NCBI GenBank assembly: GCA_035553895.1
Contig: DATMJI010000211.1
Coordinates: 1-44,938 of the forward strand
Length of the DNA: 44,938 nt
Direction: 5' to 3'
Source of the DNA: Acidimicrobiales bacterium
GTDB taxonomy: Bacteria > Actinomycetota > Acidimicrobiia > Acidimicrobiales > CADCSY01
A program made the position numbers and the translations under genes. Position 1 is the first letter of the stretch, and each line of letters starts with the position of its first letter. Of this stretch, positions 1,405 through 39,110 are shown piece by piece. Under the pieces are notes generated by a model. The model did no database searches and was not told where the DNA came from. It worked only from the letters and a program-made list of their open reading frames with translations.

Positions 1405-2832
1405 ATGGCGGTAGCGTTCCCGCCGGCCATGCGCCCCCTTCCCGCCCCGGCGCTCGATGCCGACCAGGTCCTGGCCTTCGTGCTGGTCGACGTGGCCGTC
1501 ATCCTCGTCGCCGCCACGCTCCTCGGGGCGCTGGCCCGGCGGCTGCGCCAGCCCACCGTGGTGGGACACATCGTGGCCGGCATCGCCCTCGGCCCCACGC
1601 TCCTCGGCCCCGGCGTGTTCACCTGGGGCCGGCCCTGGGCGGCGCTGCACTGCGACGCCGCCCTGGCCGCCAGCGGCGCCCTGCCCAGCGTGGGCAGCTG
1701 CCTGTTCCCGCCCCAGGCCCGCAGCGTGCTGGGCATCCTCGGCCAGATCGCCCTGGTGCTCTACATGCTCCTGGTGGGCCTCGAGCTCGACCCCCGGATG
1801 CTGCGGGGCCGGGGCCGGGGGGTCGCCACCGTGGCCGTCGGCGCCCTGGCCGTCCCCCTGGCCTTCGGCCTGCTCATCGGTCCCCTGCTCTACGGCGCCA
1901 CCTTCACCGGCGCCTTCGGCACCCCCGCCCAGCCCTCGCGGCTGGCCTTCTCCCTCATGGTGGGGGCCATCCTCTCCGTCGGCGCCTTCCCGGTGATGGC
2001 CCACATCCTCAACGAAAGGGGGATGGCCCGCACGACCATGGGATCGACCGGCATCGCCGCCGCCGCCGCCCTCACCGTACTCATGTTCCTGGCTGTGGCC
2101 GCGGCCGACGCCATCGCCCGCCAGGAGGGCGTGCCGGAGATCCTGGCCACGGTGGCACTGGCGGGCGGCTACGTGGCGGTGATGCTGGTGGTGGTGCGCC
2201 GGGCCCTGGCGCCCCTCGGCCGCGCCGTGGAGGCCAGGGGGACGCTGTCGAGCACCCACTTCGCCGTGATCCTGGCCTTGGCCTTCGCCTCGGCCCTGGT
2301 GGCCGAGCGCATCGGCATCAACGTCATCACCGGCGCTTTCCTCCTCGGCGCCGTGATCCCTGCCAGATCCATCGTGTTCCCCGAGATGGCCGCCCGGATC
2401 CAGGAGGTCACCGTGACAGCCCTGCTGCCCATCTTCTTGGCCTTCTCCGGCCTGAACACCGACCTCTCCAGCGTGCCCTGGTCGGCCGCCGGCGGCATCC
2501 TCGTGCTGCTGGTCGCCGGGGTGGTAGCCAAGCTGGGAGGCGGAGCGGTCTCGGCTCGCCTGGGAGGCCTCGGCTGGGGCGAGGCGTCCCTTCTGGGCGT
2601 GCTCATGAACTGCCGGGGGCTGCTGGTGCTGGTGGTGGCCTTGGTGGCGGTCGACGCCGGGGTCATCTCGCCGGTGCTGCAGGTCGGTGCGGTGGTCATG
2701 GCCCTGGTCACCACGGCCATGACTGGACCGCTCTTCGACGCCCTGGTCCGGCGCGTGATCCTGGTCGACGTCACCTACATTGGAGGTGCCGCCAAAGCGA
2801 CGTGGGTACGTCCCGGGCAAGGAGGATCGTGA
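1405..2832 (+). CDS. Cation:proton antiporter (CPA2 / Kef-NapA-like Na+/H+ exchanger family)
   Basis: In-frame ATG at 1405 within track ORF 1156..2832. Polytopic hydrophobic protein with N-terminal LARRLRQPTVVGHIVAGIALGPTLLG and later LGAFLLGAVIP-type motifs typical of CPA2. Its stop overlaps the next start (GTGA at 2829-2832). Confidence 0.85.
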   Translation: MAVAFPPAMRPLPAPALDADQVLAFVLVDVAVILVAATLLGALARRLRQPTVVGHIVAGIALGPTLLGPGVFTWGRPWAALHCDAALAASGALPSVGSCLFPPQARSVLGILGQIALVLYMLLVGLELDPRMLRGRGRGVATVAVGALAVPLAFGLLIGPLLYGATFTGAFGTPAQPSRLAFSLMVGAILSVGAFPVMAHILNERGMARTTMGSTGIAAAAALTVLMFLAVAAADAIARQEGVPEILATVALAGGYVAVMLVVVRRALAPLGRAVEARGTLSSTHFAVILALAFASALVAERIGINVITGAFLLGAVIPARSIVFPEMAARIQEVTVTALLPIFLAFSGLNTDLSSVPWSAAGGILVLLVAGVVAKLGGGAVSARLGGLGWGEASLLGVLMNCRGLLVLVVALVAVDAGVISPVLQVGAVVMALVTTAMTGPLFDALVRRVILVDVTYIGGAAKATWVRPGQGGS

Positions 2833-4247
2833 GCGCAACCGAGACGTGCGACGTGGTGGTGATCGGCGGGGGACCCGCCGGTTCCACCACCGCCTCCTTC
2901 CTTGCCCGCCAGGGCCACGACGTCACCGTCTTGGAGCGAGCCCGCTTCCCGCGCGAGCACGTCGGCGAGTCGCTCCTTCCCTTCTGCTACGGCATCCTCG
3001 ACGAGCTGGGCCTGATCGCCGAGATGAAGCAGCGCTTCGTGCGCAAGCCCGGCGTTCGCTTCCTCGACACCGACGGGGTGACCCAGACGACCTGGTGCTT
3101 CGGCTCCAAGATCCAGGACCCGAGCTTCCTCTCCTTCCACGTCATCCGCTCGGAGTTCGACCAGCTCCTCCTCGACCACGCCGCCGAGGAGGGAGCGACG
3201 GTGCGGGAGCAGACCAGGGTCGACGCCGTGGACCTGGACGGCCCCGACGGGAGGGCGGTCGTCGAGGCCTGCGGTGCGGACGGCCAGCGCCTGCGCTTCA
3301 GCGCCCGGTACGTCGTCGACGCCAGCGGGCGAGACACCTTCCTGGCCAATCGCATGCGGACCAAGACGGCGCACAAGGAGCTCGAGCGCACGGCCCTGGG
3401 GAGCCACTGGCAGGGTGTCGACTATGCCGGCGGCCTGGCCGACGGGTTGATCCAGATCGTCTACACCGGCGGCGACAAGCAGGGCTGGATCTGGGTCATC
3501 CCGCTCGGCACCGACCGGGTCAGCCTGGGGGTGGTGATGAACACGGCCCACTACCGCCGGCAGCGGCAGCTGCTCAAGGACCAGGGCCACGGCGACTGGC
3601 AGCTGGCGCTCTACCTCCAAGAGATCCTGTCGTCGCCCTTCATCGAGCGCATCACCTCGGGGGCGACACGGACATGGCCGGTCGCCGTCAACGGCGACTA
3701 CTCCTACACGGTGGGGGCGAAGTGGGGGCCCAACCACGCCCTGGTGGGTGACGCCTCTGCCTTCATCGACCCCATCTTCTCCAGCGGGGTGTACCTGGCC
3801 ATGAACAGCGCCCGGCTCCTGGCGGGGGCGCTCGACACCCAGCTCCGCACGGGGGGCGCCGACGGCGCCGCCGCCATGGAGGAGGTCTACGAGCGCATCG
3901 TGGGGGCCTACTCGCTGGTCGACAAGCTCATCCGCCTCTTCTACACCCCCGAGACCATCAACTTCGCCCAGCTGGGGAAGGCGAGAGAGGCCTTCTCCGA
4001 CACCGACCACTACGTCAACGCCATGTCCCTCCAACACTTCCTCCTGGCCGGCGACTTCTTCGAGCAGAGCCACCGCTACTCCTCCTTCGTCGACTCGCTG
4101 CGTGACCCCAAGCTCTTCCGCCGGTACCAGAAGCTGGTCATCGATCGCCCGGAGTTCGACGAGGACACGTGCGACCACGGCTGCGAACCCGTCTTCCATC
4201 CCGACCTCGCCGGGCACGAGCTCCGGCGGGCCGAGCTCGGCATCTGA
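2829..4247 (+). CDS. FAD-dependent oxidoreductase, flavin-dependent-halogenase-like (tryptophan-halogenase family fold)
   Basis: GTG at 2829 preceded by AGGAGG. Motifs seen: dinucleotide fold DVVVIGGGPAGS, FPREHVGESLLP, Lys in RFVRKPGVRF, WxWxIP-type GWIWVIP, and GDASAFIDPIFSSGV. Confidence 0.75.
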   Translation: MSATETCDVVVIGGGPAGSTTASFLARQGHDVTVLERARFPREHVGESLLPFCYGILDELGLIAEMKQRFVRKPGVRFLDTDGVTQTTWCFGSKIQDPSFLSFHVIRSEFDQLLLDHAAEEGATVREQTRVDAVDLDGPDGRAVVEACGADGQRLRFSARYVVDASGRDTFLANRMRTKTAHKELERTALGSHWQGVDYAGGLADGLIQIVYTGGDKQGWIWVIPLGTDRVSLGVVMNTAHYRRQRQLLKDQGHGDWQLALYLQEILSSPFIERITSGATRTWPVAVNGDYSYTVGAKWGPNHALVGDASAFIDPIFSSGVYLAMNSARLLAGALDTQLRTGGADGAAAMEEVYERIVGAYSLVDKLIRLFYTPETINFAQLGKAREAFSDTDHYVNAMSLQHFLLAGDFFEQSHRYSSFVDSLRDPKLFRRYQKLVIDRPEFDEDTCDHGCEPVFHPDLAGHELRRAELGI

Positions 4248-4256
4248 GGAGATCCC

Positions 4257-5513
4257 ATGCAGACAGACGTGGCCATCGTGGGTGGAGGGCCGGGGGGAGC
4301 AGCCACCGCCGCCTACCTGAGCCGGGCCGGCATCGACTCGGTCATCATCGAGAAGGCGGCCTTCCCCCGCTTCCACATCGGCGAGTCCCTGACCGGGGAG
4401 TGCGGCAACCTCCTGCGCGAGCTGGGCCTCGAGGAGGAGATGGCGGCCATGGGCAACCCGGTCAAGTACGGGGTCCGGGTCATCGGCCCCAGCGGAGCCA
4501 ACAGCTTCTGGATCCCGGTGAAGAAGCGGGTCCCCGGTGTCGGCCTCCAGGACGGCTTCACCTGGCAGGTTCGCCGCAGCGACTTCGACCGCGTCCTGCT
4601 GGACAAGGCCCGCTCCACGGGCGCAACGGTGCTTTCCGGGCGAGCGCTGGCGCCCATGGCCACCGGCGACGGTGGCGTGGGTGGGGTCCGGGTCCACCTC
4701 GAGGGCGGCGAGGAGGTCGATGTCGAGTCGGCGGTGGTGGTCGACGCCTCGGGCCAGCACACCTTCCTGGCCAACGCCGGCATCACCAGCCGCAAGGACC
4801 GGGGCAACTACGACCGCCAGATCGCCATCTACTCCCACTTCAGCGGCGTCCGGCGGGATGCCGGCGACGCCGCCGGCAACACCTTGATCTTCTTCCAAAA
4901 GCCCCACCACTGGGCCTGGTCCATCCCCATCGACGGGAAGACCGACAGCATCGGTGTGGTCGTCCCGTCGGCGTACTACCGCTCGACGGGCGAGTCCAAG
5001 CGGGACTTCCTGGTGCGGGAGATGGCGGCGCTCAATCCCGATCTCGCCAGCCGGGTCGCCGGGGCGACGCTGGTGGAGGAGGTTCGGGCCAGCTCCAACT
5101 ACTCCTACCACGTGCGGGAGTTCAGCGGCCGGGGCTGGCTCTGCGTGGGCGACTCCCACCGCTTCATCGATCCCATCTTCTCCTTCGGGGTCCACCTCTC
5201 CATCTCGGAGGCCAAGATGGCGGCAGCCGCCATCGAGCGCTACCTCGGGGGCGAGGGTGCCGGCCAGGACCGGCCCTTCCTGGCCTACGAGCAGGCGGCG
5301 GAGCGGGGCACCGACGTCTTCCAGAGCGTGCTCGACGGCTTCTGGGAAAACAACCTGGCCTTCGCCGTCCTCGTGCACGAGCGCTACCCGGAGGACTTCA
5401 TCGACATGTTCGCCGGACGGGTCTACGTCGAGCACGAGTACGAGGGACTGCGGGCCATCCGCAAGGTGCTGGCCCGCACCCGCGGCCAGCACCAGCAACC
5501 GGTCGCCGGCTGA
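4257..5513 (+). CDS. FAD-dependent oxidoreductase, flavin-dependent-halogenase-like (paralogue of 2829..4247)
   Basis: Motifs seen: DVAIVGGGPGGA, FPRFHIGESLTGE, NPVKYGVRV, WxWxIP-type HWAWSIP, GDSHRFIDPIFSFGV. Same motif order as the upstream gene. Confidence 0.75.
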   Translation: MQTDVAIVGGGPGGAATAAYLSRAGIDSVIIEKAAFPRFHIGESLTGECGNLLRELGLEEEMAAMGNPVKYGVRVIGPSGANSFWIPVKKRVPGVGLQDGFTWQVRRSDFDRVLLDKARSTGATVLSGRALAPMATGDGGVGGVRVHLEGGEEVDVESAVVVDASGQHTFLANAGITSRKDRGNYDRQIAIYSHFSGVRRDAGDAAGNTLIFFQKPHHWAWSIPIDGKTDSIGVVVPSAYYRSTGESKRDFLVREMAALNPDLASRVAGATLVEEVRASSNYSYHVREFSGRGWLCVGDSHRFIDPIFSFGVHLSISEAKMAAAAIERYLGGEGAGQDRPFLAYEQAAERGTDVFQSVLDGFWENNLAFAVLVHERYPEDFIDMFAGRVYVEHEYEGLRAIRKVLARTRGQHQQPVAG

Positions 5514-5530
5514 ACACCCCCTCGTCCCCA

Positions 5531-5567
5531 GTGCGGCCGGGACCCCCCTGCGGGGGCTCAGCCGCAC
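5531..5567. terminator. Imperfect GC-rich hairpin between convergent genes (possible bidirectional terminator)
   Basis: GTGCGGC..CCCCC-tgc-GGGGG..GCCGCAC. The outer 7-bp and inner 5-bp stems were read directly. It lies in the 78-nt gap between the stops at 5513 (+) and 5592 (-). No U-tract. Confidence 0.4.
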
Positions 5568-5591
5568 CGAGAACGAACAACCGGGCCGTGG

Positions 5592-6077
5592 TCAGCGGCC
5601 GTCGGGGCCGAGGGTGATGCAGGCCACCGAGTGGCGCCCGGGCATGGTGGCGTGGCCATGGAAGTTGGGACCTTGGTGGACCAGCTCGGCGGTGCGCACC
5701 TGGTTGGGTCCGGGTCCCAGGGTGTAGGGCGGGTCGGCCTCGAAGGTGTTGAGCCGGGGCCCGTAGGCCTGGGTGAAGACGAAGGGGTAGCTGGCAATGG
5801 CGTCGTTGCAGGTGGTGTCGCGGTGCAGGACCATGTCCCACTCGTCGGCCGAGACCGCATCCGGGGCGATCGAGTCCACCAGGCTGGCGTAGGTCCGGTG
5901 GGTACCGGGGTACTTGGTCAGGCTCACCTGACCGAGGCCCAGGGAGCTCCCGGAGAGGACGAGCTCGACGTTTCGCTCCGGCCCGTCGTTGGCCACGGCG
6001 GGAAAGGCAGCGCCGGTGGCGAGCGCGGCGGCGGCGGCCAGGGCGGCGACGGCGGGAAAGACACGGCGGGTTCTCAT
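5592..6077 (-). CDS. Small secreted protein of unknown function (paralogue of 19302..19784)
   Basis: ATG at 6077 with AGAGGAGAA 5 nt upstream on the minus strand. Signal-peptide-like N-terminus MRTRRVFPAVAALAAAAALATGAAFPAVA. Shares VANDG, SA(D/S)EW, VH.GP and GRH..AC..L with the 19302..19784 product. Confidence 0.7.
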   Translation of the reverse strand: MRTRRVFPAVAALAAAAALATGAAFPAVANDGPERNVELVLSGSSLGLGQVSLTKYPGTHRTYASLVDSIAPDAVSADEWDMVLHRDTTCNDAIASYPFVFTQAYGPRLNTFEADPPYTLGPGPNQVRTAELVHQGPNFHGHATMPGRHSVACITLGPDGR

Positions 6078-8877: not shown

Positions 8878-8979
8878 GTGGTCCTCGTCGCCTGACCGAT
8901 CCCCTCCGCCGGCGCCAGCGTAGGCGAGGGGTCCGCCACCGGGCAGTCGTCGCCCTCCGGCCCGCCGGCCGGCCCGCGC

Positions 8980-10053: not shown

Positions 10054-10275
10054 GAACCCACCTCCGGTCGACAGCCCGTCGCTCTTGCTGACCCGGCGTC
10101 GCACTGTACTTCCCGGGCGGGCAGCCACGCCCCGTCGCCCGCCGCCGGCGCCCGGGGCACCTTGCCGCAGTCGGCGGCCAACCCGTACCCTGGCCCGGGC
10201 AGTCGCTCGACGAGATGCCTTCCCACCGGACCCCCCCACGTTCTGGATGCGGAGGCCCGCACACGGAGGAACCCG
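10054..10275. promoter_or_regulatory. Divergent intergenic region (GT4 operon <-> ACAD/adenylation/carrier operon)
   Basis: A 222-nt gap between divergent starts at 10053 (-) and 10276 (+), so it must hold promoters for both operons. No boxes assigned. Confidence 0.3.
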
Positions 10276-11421
10276 GTGGACTTCGGGTGGACCGAGGAAC
10301 AGCAACGCCGCCGCCAGGAGGTCATCGACTTCGCCCGGCGGGAGCTCAACGACGACGTGCGGGAGCGCGACGCCGGCGCCGCCTTCTCGGCCGAGGCGTG
10401 GAAGCGCTGCGCCGGCTTCGGCATCCAGGGCCTTCCCGTCCCTGAGGAGTACGGCGGCCAGGGTGCCGACCCCATCACCATCATGATGACGATGGAGGCG
10501 CTCGGCTACGGCTGCGCCGACAACGGCCTGCTCTTCGGCCTCGGCGCCCAGATGTGGTCGGCCGAGACCCCTTTGGTGCGCTTCGGCACCGAGGAGCAGA
10601 AGCGCCGCTTCCTCCCCGGCCTCTGCGACGGCTCGCTCGTCGGGGTCCAGGCCATGACCGAACCGGAGTCGGGCTCGGACGCCTTCGCCATGTCGACCCT
10701 GGTGGAGCAGCGCGGTGACCGCTACGTCCTGGACGGGACCAAGACCTTCATCACCAACGCCCCGGTGGCCGACGTGATCGTCGTCTTCGCCACCTCGGCG
10801 CCGGGCAGGGGCTTCGGCGGTGCCTCGGCCTTCCTCGTCGAACGAGGCACGCCGGGCCTGGAGATCGGTCCCCCGCTGGCCAAGATGGGCCTACGCACCA
10901 TCCCCATGGGCGAGGTCAGGCTCTCCGGCTGCGAGGTGCCGGCCGAGAACCGGTTGGGACCGGCGGGCGCGGGCCTGGCCATCTTCAACCACTCCATGGA
11001 CTGGGAGCGCAGCTACATCCTGGCCGGCGCTGTCGGCACCATGCAGCGCCAGCTCGACCGCTGCATCAGCCGGGCCCGGGAGCGCCGCCAGTTCGGCCAG
11101 GCCATCGGGAAGTTCCAGGCCGTGGCCCACCGCATCGTCGACATCCACACCAGGGTGCGCACCGGCCGCCTCCTGCTCTACGAGCTGGCTTGGCTGCGCA
11201 CCCAGAAGAAGTCGACCACCGTGGAATCGGCCCTGGCCAAGCTGTGGGTGAGCGAGTCGTTCCTGGCCTCGAGCCTCGACGCCCTGTTCGTCCACGGGGG
11301 TGCGGGCTACCTCACCGAGAACGAGCTCGAACGCGACGTGCGCGATGCGGTGGCCGGCTGCATCTACTCGGGGACCTCGGACATGCAGCGCAACATCATC
11401 GCCGCTCGCCTCGGTCTGTGA
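10276..11421 (+). CDS. Acyl-CoA dehydrogenase family flavoprotein (possibly acting on a carrier-protein thioester)
   Basis: GTG at 10276 after GGAGGA. ACAD-typical blocks: AMTEPESGSDA, TKTFITNAPVADV, RRQFGQAIGKFQAVAHRIVD, and C-terminal IYSGTSDMQRNIIA. Confidence 0.85.
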   Translation: MDFGWTEEQQRRRQEVIDFARRELNDDVRERDAGAAFSAEAWKRCAGFGIQGLPVPEEYGGQGADPITIMMTMEALGYGCADNGLLFGLGAQMWSAETPLVRFGTEEQKRRFLPGLCDGSLVGVQAMTEPESGSDAFAMSTLVEQRGDRYVLDGTKTFITNAPVADVIVVFATSAPGRGFGGASAFLVERGTPGLEIGPPLAKMGLRTIPMGEVRLSGCEVPAENRLGPAGAGLAIFNHSMDWERSYILAGAVGTMQRQLDRCISRARERRQFGQAIGKFQAVAHRIVDIHTRVRTGRLLLYELAWLRTQKKSTTVESALAKLWVSESFLASSLDALFVHGGAGYLTENELERDVRDAVAGCIYSGTSDMQRNIIAARLGL

Positions 11422-13025
11422 GCGCCCACCTGCTGCACCACCTGCTGGACGCCGCCGCCGAGCGCCGGCCCGGCGCCGGCGCCGTGGTCGACCGCCAGCG
11501 CCGCCTCACCTACGCCGAGCTGGCCGGCCGGGCCAACCGGGTGGCCCGCCTGCTGGTGGCGTGCGGCGTGGCGCCGGGCGAGCGGGTCGGCCTGTACCTG
11601 GAGAAGTCGCCCGAGGCCATCGCCGGCCTGTTCGGGGTACTCAAGGCGGGCGCCGCCTACGTGCCGCTGGACCACCACGCCCCGGCCGAGCGCCTCGCCT
11701 ACATCGCCGCCGACTGCGGGATCCGGACCCTGCTCACCACCTCGGCGCAGTTGCCGGCGTGCGGCGAGCTGGTCGCCGCCGGTGCCCCGCTGGAGCGCCT
11801 GGTCGTCCTCGACGCCACGGGTACCGAGGCCGACGGGGACCAGCCGGGCGTCGAGGTGCCGGGAGTGGAGGTGCTGGGCCCGGTGGAGCTGGCCGCCCAG
11901 GAGGCCTCGCCTCCACCGGTCCGGGTCATCGACCTGGACCTGGCCTACATCCTCTACACCTCCGGCTCCACCGGGCGCCCCAAGGGGGTGATGCTGACCC
12001 ACCGCAACGCCTTGACCTTCGTCGAGTGGGCGGTGACCCGCTTCGCCGTGAGCCCCGAGGACCGGCTGTCGAGCCACGCCCCCCTGCACTTCGACCTGTC
12101 CGTCTTCGACGTCTTCGCCGCCTCGGCCGCCGGGGCCGGGCTGTTCCTGGTTCCCCCCGAGGCCTCGGTCCTGCCCCTCGAAGCCGTCCGTTTCATGGCC
12201 GCCCACGAGCTCACGGTGTGGTACTCGGTGCCCTCCATCCTGGTCATGATCGCCCTGCGGGGCGGCCTGGCCGCCGGTGACCTCCCCCGGCTACGGGCCG
12301 TCCTCTTCGCCGGCGAGGTGCTGGCCCCCAAGCACCTGCGCCGGCTCATGGAGCTCCTGCCCCACGCCGACTTCCACAACCTCTACGGCCCGACCGAGAC
12401 CAACGTCTGCACCCACCACCAGGTGCGCCAGCCCCCGGGCGACGGCGACGGCATCCCCATCGGGCGAGCCATCGACCGGGTCGAGGTCTTCGCCCTGACC
12501 GACGACGGGCAACGGGCGGCGCCGGGGCAGGTGGGTGAGCTCTACGTGCGGGGCACGACGGTGATGAGCGGCTACTGGGGCGACCACGACCGCAGTGCCC
12601 AGGTGCTGGTGCCCGACCCGCTGGGCCGCCCGGTCGGGGACCGGGCGTACCGCACCGGCGATCTGGTGCGGGAGGATGCCGGCGGCAATCTCCACTTCCT
12701 CGGCCGGCGCGACGCCCAGATCAAGAGCCGGGGCTACCGCATCGAGCTGGGTGAGATCGAAGCCGCCCTCCACGCCCATCCGGCCGTGCTGGAGTGTGCC
12801 GTGGTGGCCGTCGCCGACGAGCTCGTCACCAACCGCATCACCGCCTACGTGGCCCGGCGCGACGATGTCGGCCGGGACGAGCTGGTGGCCTTCTGTGGCC
12901 GGCGAATTCCGAAGTATATGATCCCCGAGACGTTCGAGTTCCGGGAGAAGCTGCCCAAGACATCGACGGGAAAGATCGACCGCTTGGCCCTGGCGAGGGG
13001 CGAACACGGAACGGATGGGACATGA
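11418..13025 (+). CDS. Stand-alone NRPS-type adenylation enzyme (DltA-like amino-acid--carrier-protein ligase)
   Basis: GTG at 11418 overlaps the ACAD stop (GTGA). Core motifs: LAYILYTSGSTGRPKGV (A3), HFDLSVFDVF (A4), NLYGPTETNV (A5), YRTGDLV (A7), GRRDAQIKSRGYRIELGEIE (A8), PKTSTGKIDR (A10). Confidence 0.9.
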   Translation: MSAHLLHHLLDAAAERRPGAGAVVDRQRRLTYAELAGRANRVARLLVACGVAPGERVGLYLEKSPEAIAGLFGVLKAGAAYVPLDHHAPAERLAYIAADCGIRTLLTTSAQLPACGELVAAGAPLERLVVLDATGTEADGDQPGVEVPGVEVLGPVELAAQEASPPPVRVIDLDLAYILYTSGSTGRPKGVMLTHRNALTFVEWAVTRFAVSPEDRLSSHAPLHFDLSVFDVFAASAAGAGLFLVPPEASVLPLEAVRFMAAHELTVWYSVPSILVMIALRGGLAAGDLPRLRAVLFAGEVLAPKHLRRLMELLPHADFHNLYGPTETNVCTHHQVRQPPGDGDGIPIGRAIDRVEVFALTDDGQRAAPGQVGELYVRGTTVMSGYWGDHDRSAQVLVPDPLGRPVGDRAYRTGDLVREDAGGNLHFLGRRDAQIKSRGYRIELGEIEAALHAHPAVLECAVVAVADELVTNRITAYVARRDDVGRDELVAFCGRRIPKYMIPETFEFREKLPKTSTGKIDRLALARGEHGTDGT

Positions 13026-13276
13026 CGAACGAGGACCGGGTGCGGAACTTCATCCGCACCGACCTGGGCGCCGGGGCTTCGGTGGAGCTCTCCGACGACT
13101 ACCCCCTGATCGAGAACGCGGTGATCGACTCGCTCGGCATCTTCGAGATGGTCCGCTTCATCGAATCGGAGTTCGACGTCGAGGTCGACGACGAGGATCT
13201 GCTCCTCGACAACTTCGCCACCATCGCCGACATCGCCCGCCTGGTCGATGCCAAGCAGGCCCAGCAGGCGACCTGA
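13022..13276 (+). CDS. Acyl/peptidyl carrier protein
   Basis: ATG at 13022 overlaps the upstream stop (ATGA). 84 aa, acidic, with phosphopantetheine-site motif VIDSLGIFEMV. Confidence 0.85.
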   Translation: MTNEDRVRNFIRTDLGAGASVELSDDYPLIENAVIDSLGIFEMVRFIESEFDVEVDDEDLLLDNFATIADIARLVDAKQAQQAT

Positions 13277-13362
13277 GCAGCCCCGCCAAGCGCCTTCCCG
13301 GCCGGTCTGGCCCCAGGAGACCATGGATTGCCGCGGTTCCCGGGAGCCAGAAGCGGCTGGTT

Positions 13363-14250
13363 TCAGACGTCCCAGGCCAGCTCCTGGCCCAGGAGCTCGC
13401 CCAGGCGCCGGTTGTGCGGGCGGAAGTGCTCGATCAGCTCGGCCCGGGTGTCGCCGGCCATGGGCCGGTAGCTACCGGCGTAGAGCCGGGGGTAGCTCGG
13501 GAGGGCGACCTCGGCCAGGCCCAGGAAGGCCAGGACGCCGGCCATGGCCCCGGCCGCTTCCTCGAAGAGATCCTCGCTGCGAACGACGAGGAGCTGGTGG
13601 CGGGGCAGTACGTTCAGGGCTCGCTCCACCCCGTCGGCATAGGCCCCCCGCGCCAGGTAGGAGTACCGGCGGTAGGCGTCGCCCGGGTAGGCCGGATCGG
13701 CCGCCAACCGGTCGAGCTCGCCGGCCAGGCGCTGCGGCTCGGCAGCCAGGGCGTCCTCGAAAGAGAGGGGCTCGGCGCCCTGCTTGCGCACGTGGTGGTA
13801 GTGGGAGTACGCCCGGTCCACGGGGTTGCGGAGCAGGGCGATCAGCCGCACCTCGGGCAGGGTGGCGGCGATGCGCTCGGGCGCCCGGGGGTGGAAGAGG
13901 TAGTCGGTGCTGGCCTCACCGGTGCGTATCCCGCCCCCGCCGGGCCCGGCCCACCTCCCCGGCAGGGCGAGGGGGAACTGGCTGCGGTACCAGCGCAGGC
14001 CACGCTGGTAGTGCCAGTCGAAGAAGTGGAGCTCCTTCTTGCGGGCCTTGGCGATCTCGGGGTGCTGCCCGAGGTAGTTGTACAGTGACGTGGTGCCGCA
14101 CTTCATGGCGCCGGCGATGAGGAAGTCGGGGAGCTGGCGCAGCGGGCTGGTGAGCAACCGCAGCGGGTCCCGTTCCCGGCACTGGCGGCCCAGCGCCCTC
14201 GCCCGGGCCGGTACCCGGCGGGCGGCCCGCTCCACGGCTCCGGGATGCAT
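13363..14250 (-). CDS. Sulfotransferase, heparan-sulfate-type (Sulfotransfer_1-like), class A copy 1
   Basis: C-terminal third of track ORF 13363..15471. Motifs: LPDFLIAGAMKCGTTSLYNYL (5'-PSB P-loop), KELHFFD, WYRSQF, GEASTDY, RLIALLRNPVDRAYSHY (3'-PB). The start is either ATG 14250 or TTG 14157. Confidence 0.8.
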   Translation of the reverse strand: MHPGAVERAARRVPARARALGRQCRERDPLRLLTSPLRQLPDFLIAGAMKCGTTSLYNYLGQHPEIAKARKKELHFFDWHYQRGLRWYRSQFPLALPGRWAGPGGGGIRTGEASTDYLFHPRAPERIAATLPEVRLIALLRNPVDRAYSHYHHVRKQGAEPLSFEDALAAEPQRLAGELDRLAADPAYPGDAYRRYSYLARGAYADGVERALNVLPRHQLLVVRSEDLFEEAAGAMAGVLAFLGLAEVALPSYPRLYAGSYRPMAGDTRAELIEHFRPHNRRLGELLGQELAWDV

Positions 14251-15363
14251 GGCGCCGGCCAGTGTAGATGGACCGGGGCCCTGAAGGTCCTTTACGTCTG
14301 CAAGGCGGTGGACGAATCGAGCCCGGTCCTGGCCAACCAGGTGCGTTGGATCCGGGCCCTGGCCCGCCAGCCCGGGGTGGACGAGGTCCGGGTGCTCACC
14401 CCTCGCCGGGGCCGGGCCGACTTGCCCCCTGGGGTCACCGTGCACCCCTTCGGGTCCCGCCCGCCCCTGCAGGTGGCCCGGGCCAGCGCCCGCTTCTACG
14501 CCCGCCTGGCCCGGGTGGTGCGGGGCGTCGACCTGGCCTTCGTCGCCCAGGGGGGCCACTACCCGGCCCTGCTCCTGCCCTGGAAGCTGGTGTCCCGCCG
14601 GCCCGTCTACCAGTGGAAGGCCATGCCCCACATCTCGGCCCGCATGCGTTTCTACGCCCGCTACTGCGACGACCTCGTCTTCACCGCCACCCCCGGTTCG
14701 TTCCCCCTGGCGGGGGACAGCGTCCGGGTGGTGGGCCACGGGATCGACACCGAGCTGTTCGCGGCGCCACATCCCGGTGCCCCCGCCCCCGGGCGCGACC
14801 TGGTCACCGTCACCCGCATCGCCCCGGTGAAGCGGTTGGAGGAGATGATCCGGGCCGTCGCCGAGGTGCGCCGGCGCTTCGGTCGGGCGCCCGGCCTCGA
14901 CATCGTCGGAGCGTGCGACGCCCGCAGCCAGGACCACCGCCGCCACCTGCTGCAGGTGATCGACGCGCTCGACCTGGGGGCATCGGTCCGCCTGGTCGGC
15001 GCCGTCGAGCAGGCCCGGCTGCCGGCACTGCTCGCCGACTACCGGGCCACGCTCAATTTCGCCGAGACCGCCTTCGACAAGGCGGCGGGCGAGGCCATGG
15101 CCAGTGGGCTCCCCGTGCTCACCACCAACCCCCGGGTGGCCGAGGTCGTCCCGGCCGAGCTCCACCCCGAGTTGGTGCTGGCGGCCGGCGACCCGGTGGC
15201 CCAGGCCGAGGCCATCCACCAGGCGCTGTCGTGGGGAGAGGCGACGCGTACGAGCATCGGCGAACGCCTGCGCCAGGCCGTCGTCGACCACCACAGCCTC
15301 GACGCCCTGTTCGCCAAGATCCTCGCCGCCCACCGCCATCTGGTGGTCCAAAGAGGGCGGTAG
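14245..15363 (+). CDS. Glycosyltransferase (GT4-like GT-B fold)
   Basis: N-terminal LKVLYVCKAVDESSPVLANQV and C-terminal AFDKAAGEAMASGLPVLTTNPRVAEVV. The ATG at 14245 shares the palindrome ATGCAT with the divergent sulfotransferase start. Confidence 0.7.
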   Translation: MHGAGQCRWTGALKVLYVCKAVDESSPVLANQVRWIRALARQPGVDEVRVLTPRRGRADLPPGVTVHPFGSRPPLQVARASARFYARLARVVRGVDLAFVAQGGHYPALLLPWKLVSRRPVYQWKAMPHISARMRFYARYCDDLVFTATPGSFPLAGDSVRVVGHGIDTELFAAPHPGAPAPGRDLVTVTRIAPVKRLEEMIRAVAEVRRRFGRAPGLDIVGACDARSQDHRRHLLQVIDALDLGASVRLVGAVEQARLPALLADYRATLNFAETAFDKAAGEAMASGLPVLTTNPRVAEVVPAELHPELVLAAGDPVAQAEAIHQALSWGEATRTSIGERLRQAVVDHHSLDALFAKILAAHRHLVVQRGR

Positions 15364-15415
15364 CGGTCCCTCTCGACCATCAGATGGGTGTTGGGCTCCG
15401 GTAGCATCGGCGCCC

Positions 15416-16306
15416 GTGCCTGCCCCCACCCGGTCGACCAGTGACCTGGCCACCCGCAACGACGCCATCACCGGTGTGCGGGAAGAGGTCGCCTACCTCG
15501 GTCCCGAGGGTGACGTCCTGGGCTTCACCTATGTGCCCGACGGCGTGGTGCGGGGCGGGGTGGTGCTGTGCCCGTCCCTCCACGCCGAGTTCCTCGGCAA
15601 CTACCGCAAAGAGGTACTTTTGGCCCGGGACCTGGCGGCGGCCGGTCTCGCCGTCCAGCGCTTCCACCACCGCGGCGAGGGCAACAGCCTGGGGGCACCC
15701 GAAGACGTCACCTTCGAGCGCCTCTGCGCCGACGCCACGGTGGCCGGCGACCGGCTGCGGGAACGGACGGGCGTCGACCAGCTGGCCTTCCTCGGGACCC
15801 GGCTCGGCGCCCTGGTGGCGGCGGCCACGTCGAGCGGTCCCCTCGTGCTCTGGGAGCCGGTGCTCGACGCCCGGACCTACTTCCGGGAGGCCTTTCGGGC
15901 CCGGCGGATGCGGGAGCTCAAGGACGGGGTGGCGGAGCCGTCGTCGGCCCCCTCCCTCGAGGCCCAGCTGAGCGACGAGGGTTCGGTGGACGTGCTCGGC
16001 TACACCATCCATCGCTCGCTCTTCGAGAGCTTGCGCCCCCAACACCTGGCGATCGGCGACGTCCCCCGCCCGGTGCTGATCGTCCAGATCGCCAAGCGGG
16101 CAGAGTTGCGCAGGGAGTACACGGCGGCGGCCGAAGCGTGGCGCAGTGCCGGGTGCCCGGTCGACACCGCGGTGGTCGACGACGACGAGTCGTGGTGGTT
16201 CGTCGGCGAGGACTGGCAGCCGGAGGAGCGCCGGTCCGGCACGGCCACCCTGGTGGCCGAGACCCGGAGGTGGCTGCTCGGGCACTACGGAGGGACAGCG
16301 GCATGA
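15416..16306 (+). CDS. Alpha/beta-hydrolase-fold protein (resembles exosortase-A-system-associated 'hydrolase 2' type)
   Basis: First in-frame GTG after the upstream stop (track ORF 15104..16306). Blocks: GGVVLCPSLHAEFLGNYRK, FHHRGEGNS, LAFLGTRLGALVAAA (nucleophile-elbow position). The start is uncertain (alternative GTG 15476). Confidence 0.6.
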   Translation: MPAPTRSTSDLATRNDAITGVREEVAYLGPEGDVLGFTYVPDGVVRGGVVLCPSLHAEFLGNYRKEVLLARDLAAAGLAVQRFHHRGEGNSLGAPEDVTFERLCADATVAGDRLRERTGVDQLAFLGTRLGALVAAATSSGPLVLWEPVLDARTYFREAFRARRMRELKDGVAEPSSAPSLEAQLSDEGSVDVLGYTIHRSLFESLRPQHLAIGDVPRPVLIVQIAKRAELRREYTAAAEAWRSAGCPVDTAVVDDDESWWFVGEDWQPEERRSGTATLVAETRRWLLGHYGGTAA

Positions 16307-17265
16307 ACGCCACGGCGCTGACCACCGCGGTGGAGCACATCCCCGTGTTCTTCCCGGCCGGGACCGAGACCCTCTTCGGCGTCTACACCCGCCCGGTCCA
16401 CTCGCCCCGTGATGTCGCCGTCCTCATCTCCTCGGGGGGGCTCACGGGAACCTCCACCGTCGGGCGCAACCAGATGTTCGTGCGCCTGGCGCAGCGCCTG
16501 GCCGCCGACGGATTCCCGGCCCTGCGCTTCGACTACCACGGCATCGGCGAGAGCACCGGCGTGCTGGACGAGTTCCGCCTCGATGCCGCCGAGCCCTTCG
16601 TGGACGACATCGTGGGCGCGGGTCGCCGTGTTCACGACCTCGGCGCGCGGCGCCAGGTGCTCCTGGGCAAGTGTTTCGGCTCCCGCATGGCCCTGTCGGC
16701 GGCGGCGGCGCTCGACCACCTCGACGCCGTGGTACTCATCGGCGCCCCGGTGCGAGACTTCGGCAAGGGGGAGCGGGCTGTGACCCGCCTGGCCGACCAG
16801 GTGAGCATCTGGGACGGGATCCGGCGGGTCCTGCGCCCGGCGTTCCTGCGGGGCCTGACGGACCAGCGCCGGCGCAAGACCCTGGTGCGGGCGGCCCGGG
16901 CCAAGGCCCGGGCCCTCTCGAGTCGCATCCCCGGGCAGGCCACCCCCGCCGCCCGCCAGTCGAGCGACGGGGTGAGCCGGCGCTTCATCGAGCCCCTGGA
17001 GGCGCTGATGGCGCGGGGGGTGCCCGTCCAGTTGATCTACGGGCGAGACGACGACTTCTACCGGGAGTTCCTCGCCGCCAGCCAGCGGGGGCGCCTGGCC
17101 CGCCTCCTGGCCGAGCACGCCGGCCTCGTGGAGATCACGGTGACGCCCGGCCAGGTCCGCGGCTTCGTCCAGTGCGAGGTCCAAGACGCCATCATCGACG
17201 CCGCCTGCACCTGGATCGCCCGGCGGTCGGGCGAGGGGGCCCACCCGGCGCCGGCCGGGACCTGA
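16303..17265 (+). CDS. Alpha/beta-hydrolase-fold protein with Cys at the nucleophile elbow (resembles exosortase-A-associated 'hydrolase 1' type)
   Basis: ATG at 16303 overlaps the upstream stop (ATGA). Blocks: VAVLISSGG, LRFDYHGIGES, LLGKCFGSRMAL (GxCxG instead of GxSxG). Confidence 0.65.
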   Translation: MNATALTTAVEHIPVFFPAGTETLFGVYTRPVHSPRDVAVLISSGGLTGTSTVGRNQMFVRLAQRLAADGFPALRFDYHGIGESTGVLDEFRLDAAEPFVDDIVGAGRRVHDLGARRQVLLGKCFGSRMALSAAAALDHLDAVVLIGAPVRDFGKGERAVTRLADQVSIWDGIRRVLRPAFLRGLTDQRRRKTLVRAARAKARALSSRIPGQATPAARQSSDGVSRRFIEPLEALMARGVPVQLIYGRDDDFYREFLAASQRGRLARLLAEHAGLVEITVTPGQVRGFVQCEVQDAIIDAACTWIARRSGEGAHPAPAGT

Positions 17266-17270
17266 GACCG

Positions 17271-18125
17271 GTGGCGGGAGTGGTGGACGAGCAGGCCGAC
17301 GCGCCGCCGGAGGACCTGCTCTTCCGGCGCCGGGTGCAGCCGCTGGCCGTGCTCAAGGAGCTGTGGCAGGCCCGGGAGCTGGCCCGCACGCTGGCCGAAC
17401 GGGAGCTGCGGGCCCGCTACAAGCAGACCTTCCTCGGCTTCGCCTGGGCGGTGATCACCCCGGTCATGTTGATGATCGTCTTCACCCTCTTCTTCGACAA
17501 GGTGGCCAACATCGATACGGGCGGCGCTCCTTACCCGCTCTTCTCCTACGTCGGCCTGCTGCCGTGGACCTTCTTCTCCTCGTCGGTGTCGTCGGCCTCC
17601 CAGAGCCTGGTCAGCAACATGTCCCTGCTCAACAAGGTGTACTGCCCCCGCGAGGTGTTCCCGATGGGAAGCATCCTGGTGGCCGGGCTCGACACCGTCA
17701 TCGCCACGGGTGTCCTCGGCCTGCTCTTCGCCGTCACCCAGTACGCCCCCCGGATCACCAGCGTCTACGTCCCCATCCTGCTCGCCGTCCAGCTGTGCTT
17801 CACCCTCGGTGTCGCCCTGCTGGCGGCCATCGCCACCGTCTACATCCGCGACCTCCGCCAGAGCCTGCCGATGTTCCTCCAGCTCGGCCTGTTCGCCACC
17901 CCGGTGGCCTTCGGCCTGGAGGAGATCCCCGCCAGCCTGCGTCCCCTGTACGCCGTGCTCAACCCCCTCGGCCCGGTGATCGACGGCTACCGCGACACCG
18001 TCCTGCTCGGCCAGGCCCCCGACTGGGGACTCCTGGGCCTGGGAGCAGCGTCGTCGCTGGTGCTGCTGCTCGGGGGCTACACCCTCTTCAAGCGCCTGGA
18101 GACGGGCATCGCCGATGTTGCCTGA
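17271..18125 (+). CDS. wzm: ABC-2 type polysaccharide export permease
   Basis: Blocks: ELARTLAERELRARYKQTFLGFAWAVITPVMLM and LLNKVYCPREVFP, with six hydrophobic segments. GTG 17271, 17280 or 17283 are all possible starts. Confidence 0.85.
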   Translation: MAGVVDEQADAPPEDLLFRRRVQPLAVLKELWQARELARTLAERELRARYKQTFLGFAWAVITPVMLMIVFTLFFDKVANIDTGGAPYPLFSYVGLLPWTFFSSSVSSASQSLVSNMSLLNKVYCPREVFPMGSILVAGLDTVIATGVLGLLFAVTQYAPRITSVYVPILLAVQLCFTLGVALLAAIATVYIRDLRQSLPMFLQLGLFATPVAFGLEEIPASLRPLYAVLNPLGPVIDGYRDTVLLGQAPDWGLLGLGAASSLVLLLGGYTLFKRLETGIADVA

Positions 18126-19301: not shown

Positions 19302-19784
19302 TCAGCGGGCCAAATCCACGCACGCCAACTCGTGGCGCCCCGAGTAGCCGGAGTCGGCGGCATGGCGGGTGGGCGTCGGACCATCGTGGACGACGACGAC
19401 TGAACCGCGGCCCGCCCGGCGGAGTAGGTGCGGGGAGAGGAACTCGTGCAGGCGCACCCCGTAGGTGGGGTCGTCGACGGCCTGGGCGGCGTAGAGGGCG
19501 TAGGCCCGCCGGGCACCGCAGGCGGTGTCGTAGACCTCGATCCCCCACTCGGACGCCGAGGCGGTGCTGCCGTCGAAGGTGTCGACCCGGAAGTCGATGC
19601 GTACCTGGGTCCGGCCGTCCGTCCAGTCGATGATGGTCCCGATGGCGAAGTAGTTGAAGTCCTGGGCCGAAAACGACTGTTCGCGAACCTTGTGGTAGCC
19701 GTCCCTGCCGTCGTTGGCTACCACGGGCTGGTCCAGTACGACCAGCAAGACCAGGAGCGGGAGGACGGGCCAGGCACGTTTCAT
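19302..19784 (-). CDS. Small secreted protein of unknown function (paralogue of 5592..6077)
   Basis: In-frame ATG at 19784 gives MKRAWPVLPLLVLLVVLDQPVVANDG (signal peptide). Shares VANDG, SASEW, VVHDGP and GRHELACVDL with the other copy. Confidence 0.65.
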   Translation of the reverse strand: MKRAWPVLPLLVLLVVLDQPVVANDGRDGYHKVREQSFSAQDFNYFAIGTIIDWTDGRTQVRIDFRVDTFDGSTASASEWGIEVYDTACGARRAYALYAAQAVDDPTYGVRLHEFLSPHLLRRAGRGSVVVVHDGPTPTRHAADSGYSGRHELACVDLAR

Positions 19785-19914
19785 GGTCGCCACTTTCGGC
19801 CAAGACACGCCCCGGCGCAACAACCTGGCGCATGAACGATCAGGTCGTGTTCCCCCGAGCCTCCCCTGGTAGCGGCGGCTCCACCCCGACATGCCCGCTC
19901 GCTAGCATGCGGGC

Positions 19915-35615: not shown

Positions 35616-36332
35616 GTGGGGACAACGCGGGTCAGCCGCGACAGCCCAGAGGCGGAGGCCGTGGACGAGACCCCAGAGCGTACGCGACGAGTGTTCCTCC
35701 GGCGCCTCGGTACGGCCAGTGCCGTGGCCGTCACCACGCCATGGGTGGCCCCCACGATCGTGACCCGCAGCATCGCCTCGGCGGCGGTGGGTAGCCCTCC
35801 CCCAGGCGGGGGCACCACGACCACCACCCAGCCGGGCGGGGGCACCACGACCACCACCCGGCCCGGCGGGGGCACCACGACCACCACCCGCCCCGGCGGG
35901 GGCACCACGACCACCACCCGCCCCGGGGGGGGCAACACCACCACCACCCAGCCGGGCGGGGGCACCACGACCACCACCCGGCCCGGCGCCACCACGACCA
36001 CCCGGCCTGGCGGGGGATCGACCACGACGCAGCCGGGCGGCGGGCGGGCACCCGAGGCCCAGCGCACGACCACCACCACGGGGGGTGGCCCATCCGGCAC
36101 GGGAACCGGGAGCGGCCAGCAGGGTGGCGGCCAGCAGGGTGGCGGCTCCCTGGCCCGGACCGGCGCCGAGCTGCTGGGCATGGCCGGGGTGGGCACGGCG
36201 GCAGTGGCCACCGGTGCCGCCGCCCGGGCGGCCGCCCGCCGCGGGGCGGCAAGGGCCGAGGCCGACCAGGACGATGCCGGCGACCCCGGGTCCGGGGAGG
36301 CCGACGGGTCCGACGTCCCGCCCGGCGACTGA
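35616..36332 (+). CDS. Thr/Gly/Pro tandem-repeat surface protein with an LAxTG sortase-type sorting signal
   Basis: Tat-like leader ERTRRVFLRRLGTASAVAV and (PGGGTTTTT[QR]) x6 plus degenerate copies. LARTG is followed by the hydrophobic stretch AELLGMAGVGTAAVATGAAA and the basic RAAARRGAAR. Start is GTG 35616 or GTG 35661. Confidence 0.7.
   Translation: MGTTRVSRDSPEAEAVDETPERTRRVFLRRLGTASAVAVTTPWVAPTIVTRSIASAAVGSPPPGGGTTTTTQPGGGTTTTTRPGGGTTTTTRPGGGTTTTTRPGGGNTTTTQPGGGTTTTTRPGATTTTRPGGGSTTTQPGGGRAPEAQRTTTTTGGGPSGTGTGSGQQGGGQQGGGSLARTGAELLGMAGVGTAAVATGAAARAAARRGAARAEADQDDAGDPGSGEADGSDVPPGD
35802..36032 (+). repeat. In-frame 30-nt tandem repeat (six full units plus degenerate units)
   Basis: Units ccNggcgggggcaccacgaccaccaccc(ag/gg/gc) at 35802, 35832, 35862, 35892, 35922 and 35952. 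Shortened copies follow to about 36032. Confidence 0.9.
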
Positions 36333-38450: not shown

Positions 38451-39110
38451 ATGCGACACTGCCAGATCGTGCACGCCCCGACCCACCTTCCCGCAGCGGG
38501 CGCCAAGCGTGCCCTCGACCTGGTGCTGGGCGGGCTGGCCCTGGCGGGCACGGCGCCGCTCAGCGCCGCTGCCGCCGTGGCCATCCGCTGCTCCCTGGGC
38601 TCGCCGGTGCTCTTCCGCCAGCGCCGGGCCGGCCTGGGAGGCGAGGCCTTCGACCTGGTCAAGTTCCGCACCATGCGTCCCGCCGCACCGGGCGCCGAGG
38701 ATCCCGCCTTCGACGGCGAGCGGATGTCCAAACTGGGGCGGTTCCTCCGGGCGACGAGCGTCGACGAGCTGCCGTCGCTGTGGAACGTGCTCAGGGGTGA
38801 CCTCAGCTTGGTGGGACCTCGCCCGCTCCCGGTGCGCTACCTCGATCGCTACGACGAGCACCAGGCCCGGCGCCACGAGGTCCGCCCCGGCCTCACCGGG
38901 TGGGCCCAGGTCAACGGGCGCAACCGGCTCTCGTGGCCCGAGCGCTTCGAGCTGGACGTGTGGTACGTCGACCACTGGACCCTCGGTCTCGATCTGCGGA
39001 TCCTGGCCCTGACCGCCGTCAGGGTACTGCGGGGCGGGGGGGTGAGCCACGAGGGCCACGCCACCATGCCCGAGTTCACCGGCGGTGACGGCGCAGCCCA
39101 TGGACGCTGA
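38451..39110 (+). CDS. Small monotopic phosphoglycosyl transferase (bacterial sugar transferase, PglC/WbaP C-terminal type); likely initiating enzyme
   Basis: ATG at 38451 within track ORF 38064..39110. Blocks: AKRALDLVLGGLAL, SPVLFRQRRAGLGGEAFDLVKFRTM, DELPSLWNVLRGDLSLVGPRP, PGLTGWAQVNGRN. Confidence 0.9.
   Translation: MRHCQIVHAPTHLPAAGAKRALDLVLGGLALAGTAPLSAAAAVAIRCSLGSPVLFRQRRAGLGGEAFDLVKFRTMRPAAPGAEDPAFDGERMSKLGRFLRATSVDELPSLWNVLRGDLSLVGPRPLPVRYLDRYDEHQARRHEVRPGLTGWAQVNGRNRLSWPERFELDVWYVDHWTLGLDLRILALTAVRVLRGGGVSHEGHATMPEFTGGDGAAHGR

Follow-up and report, generated by a model that had tools for sequence, protein, structure and literature searches.

What does a small carrier-protein module do in the middle of a polysaccharide locus? 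The question is raised by a stretch of 44,938 nt from an Acidimicrobiales bacterium (contig DATMJI010000211.1), the whole of which is here called the window. Three overlapping genes at positions 10276-13276, encoding an acyl-CoA dehydrogenase (ACAD)-fold enzyme, an adenylating enzyme and a carrier protein, lie there among genes for glycan synthesis, and are followed at 15416-17265 by two genes for alpha/beta-fold proteins, named H1 and H2 in that order (Table 1). A preliminary description of this DNA had suggested that an acyl group is loaded on the carrier, oxidized, and passed to the glycan by the hydrolase-like proteins. In this study, we examine each of these steps by homology, structural models and comparison with related loci. 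The analysis leads to a more specific proposal, that a thiotemplated proline-to-pyrrole pathway has been placed in a glycan assembly line, to which we assign a probability of roughly 55%. It is very likely that genes of this locus serve to convert proline, bound to the carrier, to a pyrrole acyl group that is probably halogenated. Genes were called from third-position guanine-plus-cytosine (GC) content and a codon-usage score; raw lists of open reading frames (ORFs) are unreliable at the window GC of ~72%. The calls reproduced the coordinates of the trio and its described coupling through exact overlaps, GTGA between the ACAD and adenylating enzyme genes and ATGA between the latter and the carrier gene. 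The ACAD gene has a GTG start with GGAGGA upstream.

The identity of the acyl group depends first on the adenylating enzyme. Both adenylation motifs quoted earlier, GRRDAQIKSRGYRIELGEIE and HFDLSVFDVF, are found in its sequence, and the enzyme passes the model TIGR01733 (406 bits, cut-off 317). Its best single-domain match in the Protein Data Bank (PDB) is the L-proline--carrier ligase PltF (6o6e, 2.6e-99), which also leads when the pocket region only is compared (159 bits vs 123 for the runner-up). Extraction of the 10-residue specificity code, proposed in the preliminary description, gave DLFYLALVCK, a code of proline type identical at 9/10 positions to the DLLYLALVCK of PltF; the ten Stachelhaus positions follow the established GrsA numbering. 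A full-text literature search for pocket codes returned no paper, and the code comparison rests on the PltF alignment. L-proline is the predicted substrate, and the enzyme resembles that of PltF/L/E-type cassettes in being a stand-alone protein with an L-proline pocket.

The A4 region had been likened to that of DltA, and one could imagine a DltA-like enzyme that loads D-Ala or another simple amino acid onto the glycan, as in teichoic-acid alanylation. Partial model matches (284 bits to TIGR01734) and the similar A4 motif speak for this, but the likeness of A4 is only as general as in all amino-acid adenylation domains, the cut-off of TIGR01734 is 560, and the best match is PltF. Moreover, the pocket is of the Pro and not the D-Ala type, the partner is an ACAD of prolyl-carrier type, and neither the MBOAT (DltB) nor the DltD family was found in Pfam scans of the window genes. 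The DltA-like assignment was rejected, and alanylation of this kind is scarcely credible here.

The second member of the trio aligns over its full length with the prolyl-ACP (acyl carrier protein) dehydrogenase AnaB (PDB 4irn, 2e-127, ~47% identity), ordinary acyl-CoA dehydrogenases matching at 1e-74 or weaker. It retains Glu244 of the 'WER' motif and, like AnaB and PigA, has Ser in place of the canonical catalytic Glu of YEG. Its top NCBIfam families are PigA (NF053553, 405 bits, cut-off 500) and RedW (NF045652, 398 bits, cut-off 650). These features suggest, by homology, a place in the prolyl-carrier-protein dehydrogenase group. The carrier (PP-binding, 3e-6), with Ser37 and its gene coupled to that of the adenylating enzyme, is a small carrier of the sort found in PltF/L/E-type cassettes, and tblastn detected no second carrier protein in the window. 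As a whole, the trio is predicted to be a thiotemplated proline-to-pyrrole cassette and not a DltA-like system, which gives a definite form to the earlier idea of an amino acid loaded on a dedicated carrier and then oxidized by an ACAD. In the canonical pathway (PMC10849742), the adenylated substrate is loaded on the carrier, an ACAD carries out a 4-electron oxidation, and tailoring reactions, halogenation among them, come last.

It is conceivable that the ACAD halts at the 2-electron stage like AnaB, in which case the group would be dehydroprolyl (pyrroline-5-carboxyl) and the halogenases of the window would serve another substrate. AnaB is indeed the closest solved relative, at 428 bits in the PDB search vs 282 for the pyrrole-forming PigA. 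Against this, no family model outscores those of PigA and RedW, and halogenases of the Bmp2/PltA type need an aromatic pyrrole; in four other loci they stand right beside H1-H2, and L007, among these four, also has the Pro cassette. Two- and 4-electron oxidation cannot be told apart from the ACAD sequence; with the halogenases taken into account, we consider the early stop quite unlikely.

These halogenases are encoded by two genes upstream (2829-5513), which the preliminary description had not linked to the module. Both proteins have the GxGxxG motif (GGGPAG in halogenase 1, GGGPGG in halogenase 2), the diagnostic WxWxIP (WIWVIP and WAWSIP, respectively) and the conserved Lys, and both are closest to carrier-substrate halogenases, with Bmp2, PltA and Mpy16 among the best matches, their own substrate being a prediction. 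The best PDB matches of halogenase 1 are CndH (3e1t), ChlB4, CmlS, Mpy16 and PltA, several of which are carrier-substrate halogenases. Halogenase 2 matches Bmp2 best (5bva, 3.6e-77, 263 bits), followed by PltA and Mpy16; Bmp2 halogenates a pyrrolyl-S-carrier. The halogenase 2 gene starts 9 nt after that of halogenase 1 and has a GAGGAG ribosome-binding site. The two enzymes, whose genes lie 5-8 kb upstream of the module, most probably take its carrier-bound pyrrole as their substrate. The gene for a CPA2 antiporter is coupled to that of halogenase 1 by a GTGA overlap, an odd pairing that might concern ion or halide handling.

How the acyl group leaves the carrier is the next part of the question. 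Pfam scans and tblastn found no polyketide synthase (PKS), no condensation enzyme of a nonribosomal peptide synthetase (NRPS), no second AMP-binding enzyme and no second carrier in the window. No other user of a pyrrolyl thioester or free acid was thus seen, which leaves H1/H2 as the sole candidates for unloading the carrier. The preliminary description had connected these two proteins with the hydrolase 1/2 cassette of exosortase loci. The TIGRFAM homology proved real, but weak: H1 scores 72.1 bits against TIGR03101 (cut-off 202.75), H2 53.5 against TIGR03100 (168.45), and the adenylating enzyme 347 against TIGR03098 (592), so that among the TIGRFAM models proposed for searching only TIGR01733 was passed. 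The order of the pair also differs from that first described, the hydrolase-2-like gene standing before the hydrolase-1-like one. H1 and H2 appear to be real but distant relatives of the exosortase-associated hydrolases 2 and 1, respectively. Membership in the exosortase-associated families was rejected, all three proteins being under the curated cut-offs and an exosortase not being detected; the lack of an exosortase, as first described, agrees with the Pfam/NCBIfam scans of window genes, which gave no match to the exosortase family among the genes scanned.

The GxCxG motif reported at the nucleophile elbow is the GKCFG of H2. The AlphaFold model (pLDDT 78.5) puts Cys124 at the turn from strand 117-123 to helix 125-134, and the site is, as modeled, a true nucleophile elbow. 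H1 has Arg129 at the nucleophile position, between strand 123-128 and helix 130-138 (pLDDT 89). BLASTP of H1 against H2 was not significant; profile-profile comparison (hhalign) gave 99% probability (E 9e-18) and aligned C124 of H2 with R129 of H1, which marks the two as predicted remote paralogues. The H2 family comprises 908 representative clusters at E<=1e-30, and the window H2 was aligned with the 146 best clusters (147 sequences). Cys124 is conserved in 147/147, position 250 is Asp or Glu in 142/147, and the canonical His position is His in 125/147; because of these counts, a Cys-His-Asp triad is predicted for the H2 family at large. In the sub-clade of the window, the His position is occupied by Arg (in most of the closest relatives) or other residues, and Cys124 and Asp250 are retained.

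H1-type proteins keep the G-x-R-x-G elbow from Actinomycetota to Proteobacteria, with Cys52 and Glu58 invariant. Cys52 closes strand 3, where the oxyanion hole is usually found, and with Glu58 it may make up another site for reaction or binding. The combination of a Cys elbow in hydrolase 1 and an Arg elbow in hydrolase 2 is shared from the window to proteobacterial homologues, including a fusion in a betaproteobacterial locus (L023, 9899-11797), in which hydrolase 2 (N-terminal) and hydrolase 1 (C-terminal) form a single 633-aa protein beside a TIGR03098-like ligase and an ACP. The closest representatives include five fusions, 600-621 aa long, and ORFs of ~600 aa similar to the L023 fusion are present in L027, L031, L033, L035 and L037-L040 and as P0046, P0051, P0057, P0080 and P0142. 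Because of the fusions and the profile-level paralogy, the most fitting view is that H1 and H2 together make up a single enzyme that has one canonical nucleophile only. PDB sequence searches with H1 and H2 gave weak generic esterase matches only, and the nearest fold neighbors of H1 are feruloyl/cinnamoyl esterases (template-modeling (TM) score ~0.6). A literature search on the function of TIGR03100/TIGR03101 found no functional study of the hydrolase pair.

The association of the pair with the cassette extends beyond the window. We compared 45 fetched loci (L001-L045) by tblastn of all window proteins, with Pfam added for L007; the sources of the close relatives of H2 are metagenome-assembled genomes of uncultured Acidimicrobiia, Actinomycetota and Chloroflexi, and soil metagenomes. 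L001 is syntenic with the window. In L007 the order is adenylating enzyme (A), carrier protein (CP), ACAD, two unknowns, H1, H2 and halogenase, on the same strand throughout; L015 has H1-H2-ACAD-A-CP, L014 has H1-H2-ACAD, and in L017 A-ACAD lies near H1. Homologues of halogenase 1 directly follow H1-H2 in L006, L007, L008 and L012, and a carrier protein is encoded near the pair in L009, L010, L011, L044 and L045. In L001, L042, L043 and L044 the pair is followed by wzm, and then by wzt where the contig extends (shown for L044). Sulfotransferases and glycosyltransferases (GTs) flank the pair in 12/21 actinobacterial-type loci, most of the loci just listed have one or the other at their flanks, and a polysaccharide deacetylase gene lies upstream of H1-H2 in L002 and L004.

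The adenylating enzymes of these loci vary. The code DLFYLALVCK recurs in L001 and L015, both adjoining H1 + H2, and the enzyme beside H1 in L017 has DLFYVAWVCK. In other phyla, the enzymes near the pair have DILQLGMVWK (L029, 3745-5232), a Gly-like code, DLTKVGEVGK (L020, 4391-5887), an Asn-like one, or pockets of D/NYYPTTMRVK type (L021, L023, L024, L030); the locus with the Gly-like enzyme has both H1 and H2. This pattern fits an off-loading/transfer unit with interchangeable acyl donors, and conserved synteny and gene fusions make it likely that H1/H2 act on the carrier of the window. Three further features of the compared loci were observed. Two DAHP (3-deoxy-D-arabino-heptulosonate 7-phosphate)-synthase/NeuB-like genes and a second AMP-binding enzyme gene, absent from the window, stand beside H1-H2 in L007 (6420-10537) and L045 (2819-6858). 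The H2 homologue of L015 (9530-10425) is in overlapping pieces (9530-9907 and 9892-10425), which suggests a frameshift or assembly error. Some of L008, L010, L011 and L012 carry 2-3 H2-type copies or two H1-H2 pairs, which suggests duplication and diversification.

The surroundings of the pair in the window are those of a sulfated-glycan island. The remainder of the window encodes five GT4 and one GT2 glycosyltransferases. The sulfotransferase genes, which belong to the Sulfotransfer_1 and Sulfotransfer_3 types, number eight and lie within 13363-33609, unusually many for a bacterial glycan locus; no genes for PAPS (3'-phosphoadenosine-5'-phosphosulfate) synthesis were seen in the window. The island also encodes a polysaccharide deacetylase (PF01522), a GNAT protein, an ATP-grasp enzyme, a HAD hydrolase, a methyltransferase, a Wzy-like membrane protein, a Wzz/BY-kinase, and secreted beta-helix and SBBP/Calx-beta proteins. 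The window combines adjacent genes of the PF01061 and PF00005 families with many GT genes and one for a polyprenyl-phosphate sugar transferase, the hallmarks of glycan export by an ATP-binding cassette (ABC) transporter; the best matches of the exporter genes are the Wzm, KpsM, TagH and Wzt models, all under equivalog cut-offs.

A protein or a lipid, rather than the polysaccharide, could instead be the acyl acceptor. Family descriptions of the related exosortase cassette record an old suspicion that its target is in some way connected with the surface proteins sorted by such systems, and a Thr-rich, mucin-like LAxTG surface protein is encoded within the island. Its gene, however, is 18 kb from the pair, which shares an operon with GT and glycan-exporter genes, and the GT, sulfotransferase and wzm context is retained in related loci. 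We consider a protein or lipid acceptor very unlikely.

With these elements, the following pathway can be proposed. The adenylating enzyme would activate L-proline and load the 84-aa carrier, after which the ACAD-fold flavoenzyme would convert prolyl-S-carrier to pyrrolyl-2-carboxyl-S-carrier, or would at least reach the pyrroline stage; specific homology and the pocket residues make these two steps highly probable. The upstream flavin halogenases would then halogenate the pyrrole on the carrier, which is fairly likely from homology and the conserved neighborhood. Cys124 of H2 would attack the thioester to give an acyl-S-enzyme, with H1, which has Arg for the nucleophile, as a non-canonical partner subunit. 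Together H1/H2 would pass the acyl group, in the cytoplasm, to a sulfated glycan carried on undecaprenyl, the attachment site being either a hydroxyl or an amine freed by de-N-acetylation, and Wzm/Wzt would export the acylated product. The glycan as acceptor is the tentative element, with somewhat less than an even chance of being correct; transfer to it is better supported than when first suggested because of the conserved synteny and the Cys nucleophile.

The main rival to glycan transfer is hydrolytic release. H1/H2 would here be a release hydrolase that turns (halo)pyrrolyl-S-carrier into free (halo)pyrrole-2-carboxylate or a decarboxylated halopyrrole, to be secreted or re-activated elsewhere, and the glycan genes would be mere neighbors. 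The thioesterase domain of Bmp1 releases bromopyrroles. ABC-2 exporters also carry small molecules, and the DrrA and NodI models match the window ATPase. Among the related loci, the second AMP-binding enzyme beside the pair in L007 and L045 is of interest, that of L007, with a non-amino-acid pocket (AYGFLAGHHK), being a candidate for re-activating the free acid. In the window, however, neither an NRPS or PKS nor another AMP-binding enzyme was found that could take up such an acid. A simple thioesterase would not usually have Cys as its nucleophile or a partner subunit of its own fused to it, and several genomes have the pair closely enclosed by GT and wzm/wzt genes. It also occurs with a Gly-like adenylating enzyme (L029) and with others whose pockets are unassigned (L021, L023, L024, L030), and the freeing of a common amino acid would be purposeless. 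Because of the Cys nucleophile, the conserved GT-H1-H2-wzm order, and the occurrence with adenylating enzymes of trivial free products, we weigh release lower and regard it as unlikely, albeit a serious contender.

A number of observations weigh against the proposed pyrrole-to-glycan pathway. AnaB, the closest solved relative of the ACAD, stops after a 2-electron oxidation, so that a pyrrole is not guaranteed, and the ACAD scores under the equivalog cut-offs of both PigA and RedW. About 4.7 kb of opposite-strand genes separate the halogenases from the trio, and the halogenases could have another substrate. The window H2 has Arg286 at the canonical His position, and its chemistry may be altered or weakened. 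Fold searches with both AlphaFold models returned generic alpha/beta hydrolases and esterases at TM 0.5-0.6, none of them informative. Some related loci, on short contigs, show H1-H2 without a visible adenylating enzyme or ACAD. The source is an uncultured soil bacterium. Finally, an alpha/beta-hydrolase, ChmF, is known to hydrolyze N-hydroxypyrrolyl-S-ChmI to the free acid (PMC10849742).

The preliminary description had placed a sulfotransferase and a GT between the carrier gene and the hydrolases; both are present, but the sulfotransferase gene is on the minus strand (assigned by frame plot and translation) and convergent with the carrier gene. The module therefore consists of two transcription units, ACAD-A-CP and GT4-H1-H2-wzm-wzt. 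In the second of these, GT4 and H1 are separated by 52 nt, H1 and H2 overlap by 4 nt (ATGA), H2 and wzm lie 5-14 nt apart, and wzm and wzt overlap. A scan of 10050-15450 for promoters and terminators found none. A chimeric joining of the halogenases to the trio was considered; positions 1400-18328 form a single contig in an independent assembly (Logan) of a soil metagenome run, although the sample may be the same as that of the window, and pieces of this interval are present in several other soil runs. Two small secreted proteins, weak paralogues of each other (32% identity over 97 aa, E 1e-5), are encoded on the opposite strand and bracket the GT/trio/hydrolase/exporter core.

Table 1. Features of the window, with positions, strands and the matches that support them.
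Feature	Position	Strand	Basis or remark
CPA2-family cation:proton antiporter	1429..2832	+	Pfam Na_H_Exchanger 1.3e-40; TIGR00932
Flavin-dependent halogenase 1 (GGGPAG, WIWVIP)	2829..4247	+	Pfam Trp_halogenase, FAD_binding_3
Flavin-dependent halogenase 2 (GGGPGG, WAWSIP), Bmp2-like	4257..5513	+	Best PDB match 5bva
Small secreted protein	5592..6077	-	
Prolyl-carrier-protein dehydrogenase (ACAD fold), predicted	10276..11421	+	PDB 4irn AnaB 2e-127
Stand-alone adenylating enzyme, predicted L-proline--carrier protein ligase	11418..13025	+	TIGR01733, PltF 6o6e
Stand-alone carrier protein, 84 aa, DSL Ser37	13022..13276	+	Pfam PP-binding 3e-6; NCBIfam ACP families
Sulfotransferase, 1/8 in window	13363..14235	-	Pfam Sulfotransfer_1 1e-18
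GT4 glycosyltransferase	14245..15363	+	Pfam Glyco_trans_1_4, Glycos_transf_1; start codon uncertain, maybe further downstream
H1, alpha/beta-fold, hydrolase-2 (TIGR03101-like) lineage	15416..16306	+	TIGR03101 5e-20
H2, alpha/beta-fold, hydrolase-1 (TIGR03100-like) lineage	16303..17265	+	TIGR03100 2e-14
Wzm-like ABC-2 permease	17280..18125	+	Pfam ABC2_membrane (PF01061); galactan Wzm and KpsM models
Wzt-like ABC ATPase, ~140 extra C-terminal residues	18115..19290	+	Pfam ABC_tran (PF00005); TagH, Wzt models
Small secreted protein	19302..19793	-	
LAxTG surface protein, Thr-rich, mucin-like	35691..36332		
Polyprenyl-phosphate sugar transferase	38469..39110		Bac_transf

The enzyme families of this locus are individually known. 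Their combination, a (halo)pyrrole module with an exosortase-type hydrolase pair in a sulfated-glycan ABC-exporter locus, is undescribed, and a literature search for pyrrole-acylated polysaccharides returned nothing relevant. To our knowledge, pyrroles bound to carriers have been seen in no other role than in the assembly of small-molecule antibiotics and pigments, and carrier-dependent acyl decoration of bacterial surface polymers is established in few systems: D-alanylation, lipid A glycine and Nod factors. We know of no polysaccharide for which a halogenated aromatic acyl decoration has been described. If the proposal is correct, soil Actinomycetota decorate an exported, heavily sulfated glycan with an aromatic acyl group that bears halogen, and the hydrolase 1/hydrolase 2 pair of exosortase exopolysaccharide (EPS) loci, a large family (908 clusters), would acquire a testable function. 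More speculatively, the H1/H2 heteromer may represent an unrecognized class of carrier-dependent acyltransferase for envelope glycans, made up of one subunit with a Cys nucleophile and one with an Arg elbow as pseudo-active site, sometimes fused, and common to the exosortase-associated cassette and served by varied adenylating-enzyme donors; in the window it would place halogenated pyrrole-2-carboxyl on a sulfated polysaccharide, perhaps as a chain-end cap read by the extended Wzt, and no halogenated bacterial glycan acylated with pyrrole would have preceded it. We regard this wider view as possible, though less likely than not.

Several known systems share parts of this design. The pyrrole cassettes PltF/PltL/PltE of pyoluteorin, RedM/RedO/RedW and PigI/PigG/PigA of prodiginines, and Bmp4/Bmp1/Bmp3 with Bmp2, as well as AnaC/AnaD/AnaB of anatoxin-a, have the same proline-adenylating enzyme, small carrier and ACAD-fold dehydrogenase, and the window halogenases resemble Bmp2, PltA and Mpy16. 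Unlike these cassettes, the window has no downstream PKS, NRPS or thioesterase domain, and its module sits among GTs, sulfotransferases and an ABC glycan exporter. The exosortase A (PEP-CTERM) cassette, TIGR03098/ACP/TIGR03100/TIGR03101, resembles the window in having an adenylating enzyme, a small ACP and an alpha/beta pair in an EPS locus, with the same Cys (hydrolase 1) and Arg (hydrolase 2) elbows and the same hydrolase 2-hydrolase 1 order, fused in L023. In contrast to that cassette, the window has no exosortase or PEP-CTERM proteins, has an ACAD and halogenases in addition, and has a ligase with a proline pocket, where the proteobacterial exosortase-type ligases have pockets of D/NYYPTTMRVK type.

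The reaction proposed for H1/H2 has a counterpart in CouN7/CloN7 of the aminocoumarins, in which an acyltransferase that is not a condensation domain transfers pyrrolyl-2-carboxyl from a carrier to the 3'-OH of noviose. CouN7 has a Ser-His-Asp triad and acts alone on a small-molecule glycoside. H1/H2 differ in the Cys nucleophile, the Arg in place of the usual His and the obligatory paralogous partner, and are likened to it by reaction and not by sequence. The movement of pyrrolyl from carrier to sugar by CouN7 is documented (PMC8748450). The covalent enzyme intermediate proposed for H2 has its own precedent in SyrC, CmaE and CysB, hydrolase-like proteins that take up a carrier-bound, often halogenated aminoacyl group in this form. 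SyrC and CmaE use an active-site Cys. All three deliver to another carrier domain, whereas the window has one carrier only, and the likeness is again one of function and not of sequence. SyrC, CmaE and CysB shuttle aminoacyl groups bound to carriers (PMC7966384). The Nod-factor pathway (the deacetylase NodB, the N-acyltransferase NodA with the ACP NodF, the sulfotransferase NodH and the ABC-2 exporter NodIJ) differs in acyltransferase fold, acyl group and glycan, but follows the same logic, in which a sulfated oligosaccharide receives an acyl group from a dedicated ACP, on a sugar from which the N-acetyl has been removed, and then leaves through an ABC-2 exporter, and the PF01522 deacetylase of the island parallels NodB.

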